From the sequence record OR532814.1: a DNA stretch of 64,000 bases, one strand, 5' to 3'. The DNA is from Klebsiella phage RCIP0020. Positions within the stretch are counted from its first letter, which is position 1. Each line of letters opens with the position of its first letter. The notes under the pieces were generated by a model. It was not told the origin of the DNA. It searched no databases and saw only the letters and a list, made by a program, of their open reading frames with translations. Of this stretch, positions 56,767-57,112 are shown piece after piece. Position numbers and translations under genes: made by a program.

Positions 56767-56822
56767 CGGGGAACGGGATCAAAGCGGCCTGACGGGGTAA
56801 TATAAAAATTTGAAGAAAATGC

Positions 56823-56851
56823 TTGACCTTTTAAAATCTTTGATCTATAAT
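56823..56851 (+). promoter_or_regulatory. σ70 promoter P1 (TTGACC-17-TATAAT) with GATC abutting -10
   Basis: TTGACCttttaaaatctttgatcTATAAT. Confidence 0.65.
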
Positions 56852-56938
56852 AATTATTAATTAAAATTTTATCAAAAAGATCCAACAAGATCAAGTAAAA
56901 TTTAATAAATAATTTATTAAAAATTTTTAGATCTGATC

Positions 56939-56967
56939 TTGAATTCATAAATTTTATGATCTATAAT
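56939..56967 (+). promoter_or_regulatory. σ70 promoter P2 (TTGAAT-17-TATAAT), tandem duplicate of P1
   Basis: TTGAATtcataaattttatgatcTATAAT. Confidence 0.6.
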
Positions 56968-57112
56968 ATATTAATATTTTATTTTATCATAAATTTTTAT
57001 GAAGATCAATACCTAGATCTAATAAATTTTATGCTTTTTCTGAAAACTTTTCCTTTACCCCGTCACTAAATACTGGTACTATGTTCCCATATTGGAAATC
57101 AGGAAAAACAAA

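Follow-up and report, generated by a model that had tools for sequence, protein, structure and literature searches.

An AT-rich, GATC-dense island with facing predicted promoters at the gene 3 locus of a Klebsiella slopekvirus and its two homologous copies

[quoted passage not shown] At T4 ori(uvsY), the uvsY promoter and the origin are one element. In the T4 genome, oriF lies at the start of uvsY and is primed by the uvsY transcript, oriG is found 2.2 kb from rnh, and oriE 3.4 kb from gene 3, inside gene 5. We counted 0-1 GATC within ±150 bp of the annotated T4 origins, with no GATC cluster.

Clustered GATC sites with Dam-dependent function are known from P1 oriR and P1 pac, two phage cis elements, and SeqA is reported to bind the P1 origin core (Brendler et al. 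1995). The Dam-sensitive IS10 promoters pIN and pOUT are opposed and overlapping and have GATC in or against their -35 and -10 elements, as in the locus described here.

This locus lies in the window, by which we mean the whole 64-kb stretch of DNA that was analysed. The window belongs to a Klebsiella Slopekvirus of the KP15/KP27 group, a T4-type phage. The locus was found to be one copy of a three-member, slopekvirus-specific family of extremely AT-rich islands of ~270-300 bp, and is referred to below as island 3. A first-pass annotation had described the locus as intergenic and regulatory, with a tandemly duplicated σ70 promoter unit and a cluster of GATCs well above the random expectation, and this description was supported. 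The facing leftward promoters, the 11-bp terminal inverted repeat and the membership in a three-copy family had been missed.

GATC sites and predicted promoters of island 3

The features of the locus, in window positions, are:

56213..56743, minus strand: gene 3 (tail completion / tail tube terminator), left neighbour of island 3
56746..57019, no strand: ten GATC (Dam) sites, starting at 56746, 56777, 56842, 56879, 56889, 56930, 56935, 56958, 57004 and 57016
56760..56766, minus strand: CTAAATA, probable late-promoter variant for gene 3
56790..57065, no strand: island 3, the whole element (276 bp), bordered by a terminal inverted repeat; G+C 15-20% in the AT-rich core
56790..56800, plus strand: terminal inverted repeat, left arm, TGACGGGGTAA; perfect over 11 bp, with an imperfect extension to 56831
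56803..56917, plus strand: tandem repeat unit A, aligned with unit B (z=8.6), repeat families D1 and D2
56823..56851, plus strand: predicted promoter PR1, TTGACC-17-TATAAT, 11 of 12 matches, GATC at -16..-13, predicted start ~56858, directed toward the IP-like gene
56866..56894, minus strand: predicted promoter PL1, TTGATC-17-TAAAAT with TG before the -10, predicted start ~56859, directed toward genes 3, 1 and 57A and facing PR1
56918..57035, plus strand: tandem repeat unit B, aligned with unit A (z=8.6)
56939..56967, plus strand: predicted promoter PR2, TTGAAT-17-TATAAT, 10 of 12 matches, GATC at -16..-13, predicted start ~56974
56981..57009, minus strand: predicted promoter PL2, TTGATC-17-TAAAAT with TG before the -10, predicted start ~56974, facing PR2
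57055..57065, minus strand: terminal inverted repeat, right arm (plus strand: TTACCCCGTCA)
57066..57072, plus strand: CTAAATA, adjoining the right inverted-repeat arm; probably a late-promoter variant serving the IP-like gene
57113..57901, plus strand: 262-aa IP-like gene (phrog_7322), right neighbour of island 3, putatively read from PR1 and PR2
57909..57930, no strand: bidirectional terminator between the IP-like gene and gene 2, taken over from the KP27 annotation (locus 4710-4731)

Nine GATCs had been reported earlier for this region, and each was present at exactly the position given. A tenth was detected at 56746, adjoining the start codon of gene 3, and all ten are kept in the five good-quality slopekvirus assemblies that were aligned. 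Dinucleotide-preserving shuffles of positions 56777-57060 contained 0.86±0.87 GATC (maximum 5), and 0 of 5000 reached the observed number of 9; the earlier random expectation of about one was roughly right for the local composition. In the AT-rich core (56800-57050, 15.5% G+C) there were 8 GATC versus 0.26 expected from base composition, with 8 of the 17 G residues of the core sitting in GATC. Each of the other 4-bp palindromes containing G/C occurs in the core at most once, and the seven other palindromes of GATC composition have one occurrence, all taken together. Chance clustering was ruled out by these composition-aware and dinucleotide-shuffle tests.

The whole window contains 410 GATC (1.6 per 250 bp), which is above dinucleotide shuffles, and island 3 is its densest GATC cluster at the cluster sizes tested (5, 7, 9 and 10 sites). 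For a genome-wide comparison we used the complete genome of RCIP0002, a closely related slopekvirus whose identity to the window covers the 1.8 kb surrounding island 3 and does not extend over the full 64 kb. It has 1158 GATC versus 1167 expected from trinucleotides, and hence no over-representation. Equally dense GATC in other intergenic DNA, which the first-pass annotation had named as evidence against its proposal, was not found in this genome-wide check, as three AT-rich islands in 174 kb were the only enriched regions. A high GATC density throughout the phage or its intergenic DNA was rejected on the same counts. Among slopekviruses, the good assemblies contain ~9 variable positions, which gave no power to detect purifying selection on GATC.

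Two near-consensus promoters with a GATC directly 5' of the -10 had been proposed, and both are present (56823-56851 and 56939-56967). Based on a σ70-type -35/-10 criterion with 16-18 bp spacing, PR1 (11/12) and PR2 (10/12) were recognized, both with a 17-bp spacer, and both are already annotated as promoters in the KP27 record HQ918180. In PR2 a second GATC abuts the -35 (GATCTTGAAT). The leftward promoters PL1 and PL2 have 9 of 12 matches each and contain the GATCs at 56889 and 57004, respectively, inside their -35 hexamers. As the promoters of a module are placed face to face, their predicted start points coincide. The GATC pairs 3' of the -10 elements follow at distances of 28-38 nt (first -10) and 37-49 nt (second -10). 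Promoter-like matches are, as a general observation, easily found in AT-rich DNA. We consider the predicted promoters very likely to be active.

GATC-abutting -10 promoters occur only in the islands, and the ordinary early promoters form another family without GATC. The idea that GATC is part of a general early-promoter consensus was rejected, since the common early promoters (TTGACTTCGGTC..TATATT) have none. The MotA-type middle promoter label of KP27 was rejected as well: the TGCTTGA at 56820-56826 is 19 bp from the -10, and a MotA box needs to be 11-13 bp upstream. RB43-type phages have been described as having neither MotA nor middle promoters (PMC1524935).

Island 3 is self-complementary (z=5.7). 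Its terminal inverted repeat, including the imperfect part, has 42-nt arms that are 74% complementary, and the 11-bp inverted-repeat pair is the sole exact occurrence in the window. The earlier claim of two related units of ~100 bp held for the existence of the units (z=8.6), which gave an alignment score of 40.5 versus 17.3±2.7 in shuffles (0 of 500 reached 40.5), and failed for their length, the period being ~115-116 bp. Each unit is a ~72-bp quasi-palindrome with one rightward and one leftward predicted promoter. A 47-bp piece of unit B is duplicated again in phage Lemur_ER36, and a 28-bp piece of unit A is duplicated in phage Squirrel_ER27. Judged from such natural variants, growth of the array by tandem duplication is ongoing and adds GATCs and predicted promoters.

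The 262-aa gene (57113..57901) has an N-terminus (MTHLKKFKEFLTE) similar to that of the T4 internal protein IPI (MKTFKEF). Its search against Pfam gave no match, and it belongs to a PHROG family of unknown function only. The CTAAATA heptamer that flanks the island recurs upstream of gene 53 (59286).

The island family and its counterparts in T4 and RB43-type phages

The complete RCIP0002 genome has exactly three such islands, located upstream of uvsY (island 1), between rnh and gene 55 (island 2) and at the gene 3 locus (island 3), at 11.2, 81.4 and 151.7 kb, respectively. Some 112 slopekvirus records have all three. The homology among the islands goes beyond shared composition (z=6.5-11.8 overall, and z=6.9-11.8 for island 3 compared with the other two). 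They are 65-75% identical to one another, and each retains many GATCs, at non-identical positions. The GATC counts in these three long AT-rich islands were 5, 9 and 8 versus 0.33-0.48 expected, with four GATC within 25 bp in island 2, whereas eight other short AT-rich windows had 0-1 GATC each. The family thus comprises the sole GATC-enriched AT-rich regions of the RCIP0002 genome. The three islands have 22-24 GATCs in total, but far fewer were gained independently, since several simply belong to TTGATC -35 hexamers and the copies arose from one another by duplication.

Face-to-face promoter pairs with coincident predicted starts were found in every island, and the promoter module occurs five times in the genome. 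The leftward arrangement of the PL1 type is also kept in islands 1 and 2. Among all 100-bp windows of the genome, those of the three islands have the lowest stability (z=6.3, 6.0 and 5.1; next 3.6), with island 3 ranking second. Local minima of the cumulative GC skew at 81 and 153 kb correspond to islands 2 and 3; these minima coincide with switches of transcription direction as well and so do not count as separate evidence of an origin. The islands were also seen to break genome assemblies and to draw spurious gene calls. A search of IMG/VR for more distant relatives of the locus gave five loci, and as four of them match known isolate genomes, no diversity was added. In the literature searched, we found no description of the islands or of the RB43 repeats discussed below, and no replication data for slopekviruses.

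The islands share several properties with the T4 origins. As in oriF and oriG, a promoter lies directly beside the most easily unwound DNA, and the G+C content downstream of PR1 and PR2 is 9-18%, as expected of an unwinding element of the oriF/oriG type. Island 1 lies immediately upstream of uvsY with its predicted promoters reading into uvsY, similarly to oriF. Two islands are at transcription-divergence points and GC-skew minima, in line with the location of oriE, oriF and oriG. Only island 1 (uvsY) has exactly the position of a T4 origin, and for islands 2 and 3 the correspondence is approximate. In contrast to oriF and oriG, the island promoters are of the σ70 -35/-10 type, not MotA-dependent, and are arranged face to face; no MotA-dependent middle promoter of the oriF/oriG type was found in island 3. 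The islands are also longer than the T4 origins (270-300 bp versus ~100 bp) and GATC-dense, compared with 0-1 GATC. The T4 origins share no motif, whereas the islands are mutually homologous, and an origin role of the islands is a prediction. No DnaA boxes (TTWTNCACA, up to 1 mismatch) were found in 56744-57112.

RB43-type phages carry an unrelated AT-rich repeat in three copies at the same three loci, with cores without GATC. The repeat of RB43, RB16 and GAP161 resembles the islands in its three genomic positions, its AT-rich core and its inverted flanking arms, and the copies at rnh/55 and 24/uvsY also have outward transcription on both sides. These two copies lie between divergent promoters in RB43, and for the gene 3 copy a rightward promoter only was found. 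The repeat differs from the islands in its unrelated sequence and in its promoters, which lie outside the core and back to back, whereas those of the islands are inside and face to face. A search for a GATC cluster in this sister genus gave 0-3 GATC at the locus in RB43, RB16 and GAP161, none of them in the core. As the RB43 cores are without GATC, it is the AT-rich element and its position that are conserved across genera, not the methylation sites. The earlier suggestion of a replication cis-element gained comparative support from the T4-origin synteny, the lowest duplex stability, the GC-skew minima and the three-copy equivalent in RB43. We regard an origin function of the islands as possible, at somewhat less than an even chance.

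Methylation, replication and rival explanations

Whether the phage encodes its own Dam had been asked in the first-pass annotation, and a D12 N6-adenine methyltransferase of the Dam class was found (PF02086, E=1.9e-34), with GATC specificity by annotation only. Predicted Dam and Dcm genes have been reported in all Kp15-like viruses (PMC5219037). In the error-rich CPRSA assembly, GATC accounts for 3.6% of the bases and for 10 of the 37 substitutions; the corresponding counts in two controls were 0/36 and 1/15. Such an excess would be expected of methylated sites that were miscalled, and it suggests methylation.

SeqA binding is favoured by adjacent GATCs less than ~50 bp apart and by pairs spaced about 10 or 20 bp (PMC2912659). 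The gaps between the core GATCs are 37, 10, 41, 5, 23, 46 and 12 bp, all < 50 bp. The likeness to SeqA-type GATC clusters that had been noted before was supported in that the density is far above expectation and the spacings of 10, 12 and 23 bp agree with the published preferences (PMC2912659). Island 3 resembles SeqA/Dam clusters of the oriC and dnaA-promoter type in having many GATCs within an AT-rich stretch of ~250 bp, a distance of roughly one or two helical turns from one site to the next, an overlap of GATCs with promoter elements, and a supply of Dam, here from both the host and the phage. However, island 3 is without DnaA boxes and is one of three copies, and it belongs to a virulent phage with its own methylase, which could shorten or abolish the hemimethylated period. 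Methylation of the island and SeqA binding to it are predictions from sequence. An involvement of SeqA seems doubtful to us, whereas selection on the GATCs for a methylation-dependent function is likely.

The island also has the clustered GATCs of the phage cis elements P1 oriR and pac, but the islands have neither RepA iterons nor TGATCA/G pac hexamers, and genome type and life style are different. Unlike in IS10 pIN/pOUT, both promoters of a pair carry GATCs in the islands, their predicted starts coincide, and the module is found five times in the genome.

The analysis established the anatomy of the sequence, its statistics, its place in a family, the synteny and that the phage has a methylase gene. 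We propose with moderate confidence that island 3 is a Dam-methylatable bidirectional early-promoter and unwinding element, possibly an origin resembling T4 ori(uvsY). The three islands are probably methylation-sensitive promoter hubs, and DNA replication may start at them. Each island consists of one or two ~72-bp quasi-palindromic modules with facing predicted σ70-type early promoters, and in island 3 the rightward promoters would serve the internal-protein-like gene and the leftward ones genes 3, 1 and 57A. With a GATC at -16..-13, inside the TTGATC -35 or against the -35, the methylation state would alter the use of these promoters by the host RNA polymerase. It would be set by the Dam-class enzyme of the phage together with host Dam, and SeqA might also be affected at the promoters. 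Injected DNA would be fully methylated and freshly replicated DNA hemimethylated, which would tie early transcription in both directions to replication. Transcription from the island promoters would additionally open or prime replication, as at T4 ori(uvsY); as the islands are the most easily melted segments and lie at or near the positions of T4 oriF, oriG and oriE, transcription there may have this effect. One can also picture three dispersed Dam-gated origin-promoter elements, at which facing early promoters in the most easily melted DNA of the genome start bidirectional replication and the change from full to hemi-methylation acts as the switch, through SeqA or the phage Dam. A virulent T4-type phage would then use a logic like that of oriC or P1 oriR, and RB43-type phages would achieve the same at these loci by means of an unrelated element flanked by iterons. 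We consider this rather improbable.

Most of the GATCs lie in or beside promoter hexamers, and the locus could be a strong compound early-promoter region only. Its GATCs would then be functionless, carried in the TTGATC -35 and the GATC spacer and increased in number as one ancestral cassette was duplicated, both in tandem and to dispersed sites. In favour of this, the units are homologous copies, as are the islands, duplication is ongoing in natural isolates, the RB43 equivalents work without GATC, and the origins and promoters of T4 have no such cluster. We nevertheless find a lack of GATC function unlikely: some GATCs lie outside any hexamer, such as TTAGATCTGATCT in island 3 and the four within 25 bp in island 2, and GATC takes up 8 of 17 core G residues when the seven palindromes of the same composition total one occurrence. 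In addition, the islands have diverged to 65-75% identity and yet have many GATCs each, at non-identical positions, and the phage carries its own Dam-class gene. The weight could alternatively lie on replication, the islands being primarily origins whose promoters mainly open or prime, with GATC acting as in oriC or P1 oriR, where methylated DNA unwinds more readily and, once the origin has fired, its hemimethylated copy is sequestered by SeqA. In favour of this are the duplex stability of the islands, which is the lowest in the genome, their location at GC-skew minima, the three copies at T4-origin-like positions, the T4 precedent of a promoter with an unwinding element (PMC3016281), and the AT-rich RB43 core with iteron-like flanking repeats, which occupies the same three loci and lies between divergent promoters at two. 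It is compatible with our favoured explanation and differs only in emphasis; as an account in its own right it is quite unlikely, as 56744-57112 has no DnaA box, iterons and a known initiator are lacking, no origin has been mapped in any slopekvirus or RB43-type phage, and the T4 position is approximate for two of the three islands.

Two further explanations are very improbable. Several GenBank assemblies begin or end inside island 3, and P1 pac is a GATC cluster of similar size, which would fit a packaging (pac) site under adenine methylation as in phage P1. The packaging role, also raised in the first-pass annotation, does not agree with three homologous copies per genome or with sites of the form TGATCT or AGATC instead of the TGATCA/G hexamers of P1 pac. 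The terminase gene lies ~22-23 kb beyond the island, past the end of the record, at genome position 1. The assembly ends scatter over about 100 bp and occur at island 1 too, as would be expected of shared AT-rich repeats that break assemblies. Moreover, T4-type phages package by headful from concatemers, with circularly permuted ends (PMC3016281). A non-autonomous mobile element (MITE-like) between genes 3 and 2 would account for the perfect 11-bp terminal inverted repeat with its 42-nt imperfect arms and for T4 having no comparable element between these genes. However, the flanking sequences (..gcggcc and ctaaat..) show no duplicated target site, the inverted-repeat sequence is found nowhere else in the window, islands 1 and 2 have no such arms, and the element is fixed at one place in all slopekviruses, with a counterpart there in RB43-type phages.

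Implications for T4-type phages

T4 itself is the only phage of this kind whose replication origins and early transcriptional control have been mapped well, and the KP15 and RB43 groups include many therapeutic Klebsiella, Enterobacter and E. coli phages. An odd intergenic region has here become a defined class, with three homologous islands per genome and precise promoter and GATC coordinates, to which the unrelated three-copy element at the same loci in the sister genus adds. The assembly breaks and spurious gene calls at the islands matter for the annotation of >100 deposited genomes. If Dam-gated origins were the true reading, the position of the origin would be conserved across genera and its sequence replaced. 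If the islands are origins or methylation-gated switches, they would give a reason why these phages keep a Dam gene, offer a handle for engineering or attenuating therapeutic phages, and be an example of a cis-element whose position is conserved while its sequence is wholly turned over.

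Island 3 and its neighbouring genes

The 1.8 kb around island 3, the AT-rich and GATC-rich element at 56790-57065, matched Klebsiella phage RCIP0002 at 100% identity and both KP27 and PMBT1 at 99.7%, so the window is Slopekvirus DNA (T4-type, KP15/KP27 group). The features of the locus are as follows (PR, rightward promoter; PL, leftward promoter).

Features of the island 3 locus (window coordinates)
56743, minus strand: start codon of gene 3 (tail completion), left flank of the intergenic region
56744-57112: intergenic region with the GATC cluster, 369 bp
56760-56766, minus strand: CTAAATA, facing outward just outside the left inverted-repeat arm, before gene 3
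56790-56800: TGACGGGGTAA, left arm of the perfect 11-bp terminal inverted repeat that bounds the AT-rich segment
56823-56851, plus strand: PR1, TTGACC-17-TATAAT, GATC directly against the −10
56894-56866, minus strand: PL1, TTGATC-17-TAAAAT, TG before the −10, opposing PR1
56939-56967, plus strand: PR2, TTGAAT-17-TATAAT, GATC directly against the −10
57009-56981, minus strand: PL2, TTGATC-17-TAAAAT, TG before the −10, opposing PR2
57055-57065: TTACCCCGTCA, right arm of the inverted repeat
57066-57072, plus strand: CTAAATA, facing outward just outside the right arm, before the IP-like gene
57113-57901, plus strand: IP-like gene (262 aa), right flank; further right lie genes 2 and 4 (minus strand), then genes 53 and 5 (plus strand)
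59286-59292, plus strand: CTAAATA, before gene 53

The N terminus of the IP-like protein (MTHLKKFKEFLTE) is similar to that of T4 internal protein IPI (MKTFKEF), consistent with the label given to the gene in the first-pass annotation. Because this terminus is like the targeting sequence of T4 internal proteins, the protein may be packaged and injected. A Pfam search with the 262-aa protein gave no match, and neither a fold nor a domain was assignable; its PHROG family is annotated as unknown function. Homologues in RB16, RB43 and GAP161-type phages were 65-82% identical, with a shorter form, missing approximately the last 60 residues, in RB43, Margaery and GuL6. A 61-aa ORF lies inside the AT-rich promoter DNA (56763-56948, minus strand), and some records carry small hypothetical-protein CDSs across the island (L015:166-354 and 362-523; L016:170-301 and 391-504). 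These are probably annotation artefacts.

The T4 late consensus TATAAATA was found only twice in the 64 kb. CTAAATA has been reported as the late motif of phage Aeh1 (PMC1524935) and, judging from its positions before genes, may be the late-promoter variant of slopekviruses. If so, the IP-like gene would have both early and late promoters.

GATC cluster and promoter modules

All nine GATC positions reported in the first-pass annotation were correct, and a tenth site was found at 56746. The two σ70 promoters with GATC abutting the −10 were likewise present, at the coordinates of two promoter features in the KP27 GenBank record, so PR1 and PR2 had been annotated before. The tandem duplication of the promoter unit proved real (unit A, 56803-56917, against unit B, 56918-57035: alignment score 40.5; shuffles 17.3±2.7), with a period of ~115 bp instead of the ~100 bp first proposed. 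Within each face-to-face pair the predicted starts coincide (~56858/56859 and ~56974), making each repeat unit a ~72-bp quasi-palindromic module. The whole element is self-complementary (z=5.7 vs shuffles), and TGACGGGGTAA/TTACCCCGTCA is the sole 11-bp pair of its kind in the window. The four PR and PL promoters are very probably active early promoters.

The core (56800-57050) has 15.5% G+C and eight GATC sites, compared with 0.26 expected from composition. Eight of its 17 G residues lie within GATC, and other G/C-containing 4-bp palindromes occur there at most once each. Dinucleotide-preserving shuffles of 56777-57060 gave 0.86±0.87 sites (maximum 5), and none of 5000 reached nine. GATC occupies −16 to −13 in both PR1 and PR2, forms part of the −35 hexamers (TTGATC) in PL1 and PL2 and adjoins the PR2 −35 (GATCTTGAAT); the other sites occupy spacers or the DNA between modules. 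Spacings include 10, 12 and 23 bp, with every core gap below 50 bp, in line with the preferences reported for in vivo binding by SeqA (PMC2912659). The second densest cluster of the window, at ~50936-51400 (7 sites in 250-300 bp), has ordinary composition (~45% G+C); its density falls in the upper tail predicted from the genome-wide GATC rate.

All ten sites were kept in the five good-quality assemblies aligned (5/5), with too few substitutions for significance. Squirrel_ER27 carries a 28-bp tandem duplication in the array, adding two GATCs, and Lemur_ER36 a 47-bp duplication of the PR2 cassette, adding a third promoter and three GATCs. Several assemblies begin, end or split in island 3 or its homologue island 1 (LC768475, LC768478, LC768479, LC768481, LC768482, LC768493/4, MZ612130 and MZ707157), and the 35-kb contigs of phiKp_15 and phiKp_23, of which only the starts were compared, start in island 3 and have the length of the island 3-to-island 1 distance. 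The breaks are evidently caused by the shared AT-rich repeats, and the contig ends are not real genome termini.

A family of three islands and its RB43-type counterpart

The genome-wide GATC density scan proposed in the first-pass annotation was run on the complete genome of the closely related RCIP0002, assembled to 174,243 bp. Overall, GATC is neither avoided nor favoured (1158 sites; 1167 expected from trinucleotides). The genome has exactly three long AT-rich islands (270-300 bp, 17-21% G+C), all of them GATC-rich.

AT-rich islands of the RCIP0002 genome
11114-11412 (L006:11114-11412): island 1, between gene 24 and uvsY, 5 GATC
81260-81554 (L007:31260-31554): island 2, between rnh and gene 55, 9 GATC
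151550-151822: island 3, the element described here, 8 GATC

Each island would be expected to hold 0.33-0.48 sites. Seven other palindromes matched to GATC in composition had a combined count of one per island, and eight shorter AT-rich windows had 0-1 GATC each. Island 2 aligned colinearly with island 3 over ~210 bp (z=11.8), island 1 with island 2 at z=6.5 and with the reverse complement of island 3 at z=6.9. Judged by these scores, the three islands are homologous beyond composition. They have in common the face-to-face promoter module and motifs including TTATGATCTATAAT, TTAGATCTGATCT and TCAAGTA. In island 2, a stretch of 25 bp holds four GATCs, and a GATC forms the centre of a perfect 18-bp palindrome (CTACAATGATCATTGTAG).

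In the RCIP0002 genome, only the three islands have promoters in which GATC abuts the −10. The ordinary early promoters of this phage are a different family, TTGACTTCGGTC..GGGGCTTTTG.TATATT. Approximately nine copies share a conserved G+C-rich spacer (TTGACTTCGGTCrGGGGCTTTTGyTATATT), with sites for example at 30274, 47567, 60573, 105286, 115863, 125552 and 132357; this recalls the repeated promoter cassettes described in RB49/phi1-type phages.

All three islands were conserved in ~112 slopekvirus records, and at blastn sensitivity no match was seen beyond the genus. When the whole RB43 genome was scanned, its AT-rich islands fell at the three equivalent loci (rnh/55, gene 3/IP-like and 24/uvsY). 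Their sequence is unrelated to that of the slopekvirus islands, and their cores lack GATC.

Counterpart islands in RB43-type phages
RB43, HE981739.1: 32093-32413 (L019:32093-32413), 103214-103495 (L022:13214-13495) and 137925-138188 (L020:7925-8188)
RB16, gene 3 locus: L002:1239-1509
GAP161, gene 3 locus: L005:1242-1509

The RB43 islands are three copies of one ~150-bp repeat. In it, a GAGCGAAGCGAA..CACGAACGAAGTGAGTG arm and an inverted arm enclose an AT-rich core that is almost the same in all copies; the GAGCGAAGCGAA arms are iteron-like. Divergent, back-to-back σ70 promoters flank the rnh/55 and 24/uvsY copies, and the promoter scan gave a rightward promoter only at the gene 3 copy. The repeat, of which we found no description in the literature searched, looks like an origin or regulatory element. 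An AT-rich element bounded by inverted repeats, its three positions and outward transcription (in RB43, both ways at two loci out of three) are conserved across both genera. Only in slopekviruses are there GATC clusters, and only there do the promoters lie within the AT-rich DNA.

Methylation and replication

Enterobacterial hosts possess Dam and SeqA. As to whether the phage has its own Dam, a point raised in the first-pass annotation, RCIP0002 encodes a 283-aa protein annotated dam that matches the D12 class N6-adenine methyltransferases (PF02086, E=1.9e-34). Dam and Dcm genes are predicted in all Kp15-like viruses (PMC5219037). Two error-rich assemblies, CPRSA (OM971648.1) and CPRSB (OM971649.1), with many indels and fragmented genes, differed from the others mainly at GATC (compared with window 55600-59400). 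In CPRSA 10 of 37 substitutions fell in GATC, which makes up 3.6% of bases, compared with 0/36 in KP15 and 1/15 in KP27. The changes were G>A and C>T, also in coding DNA, and are probable systematic base-calling errors at methylated sites. Indirectly, such miscalls would be a weak hint that these GATC sites are methylated in virions.

In the main rival explanation, the GATC sites would be carried along passively by a family of promoters with TTGATC hexamers and multiplied by duplication. Against that, many of them fall outside hexamers, GATC alone among tetramers is enriched, and it is retained in the diverged island copies. Maintenance of the sites for a methylation-dependent purpose is the likelier reading. 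SeqA may be involved, with a lower probability. The packaging-site and mobile-element readings do not pass the tests that define them.

By nearest-neighbour energy, duplex stability across the genome is lowest in the three islands (100-bp windows; z=6.3, 6.0 and 5.1; next window 3.6). Cumulative GC skew has two local minima, one at island 2 (81 kb) and one at island 3 (153 kb); these are also the two major points of transcription divergence, so the skew is not independent evidence of an origin. In the T4 RefSeq record, oriF (115321) is at the very start of uvsY, in an entry that equates its primer RNA with the uvsY transcript; oriG (152947) is within gene 34, 2.2 kb from rnh, and oriE (79355) within gene 5, at a distance of 3.4 kb from gene 3. 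Of the islands, one is thus positionally identical to a T4 origin and the other two are in T4-origin neighbourhoods. Unlike the islands, T4 origins have 0-1 GATC within ±150 bp. No DnaA box was found in island 3. MotA and middle promoters are absent from RB43-type phages (PMC1524935), which would account for the need of any origin promoter in this lineage to be of the −35/−10 type. Tentatively, the islands might also serve as replication origins similar to T4 ori(uvsY).

In the literature searched, we found no description of the GATC clusters, the face-to-face promoter architecture, the three-island family or its positional match to T4 origins. Island 3 is a non-random GATC cluster set in a bidirectional promoter module that is duplicated. 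Each genome has three homologous copies, located where the DNA of this phage, which encodes a Dam-class enzyme, melts most easily. It is best classed as a variant of two known kinds: AT-rich regulatory or origin regions with clustered GATC, and T4-type origins, which combine a promoter with an unwinding element.
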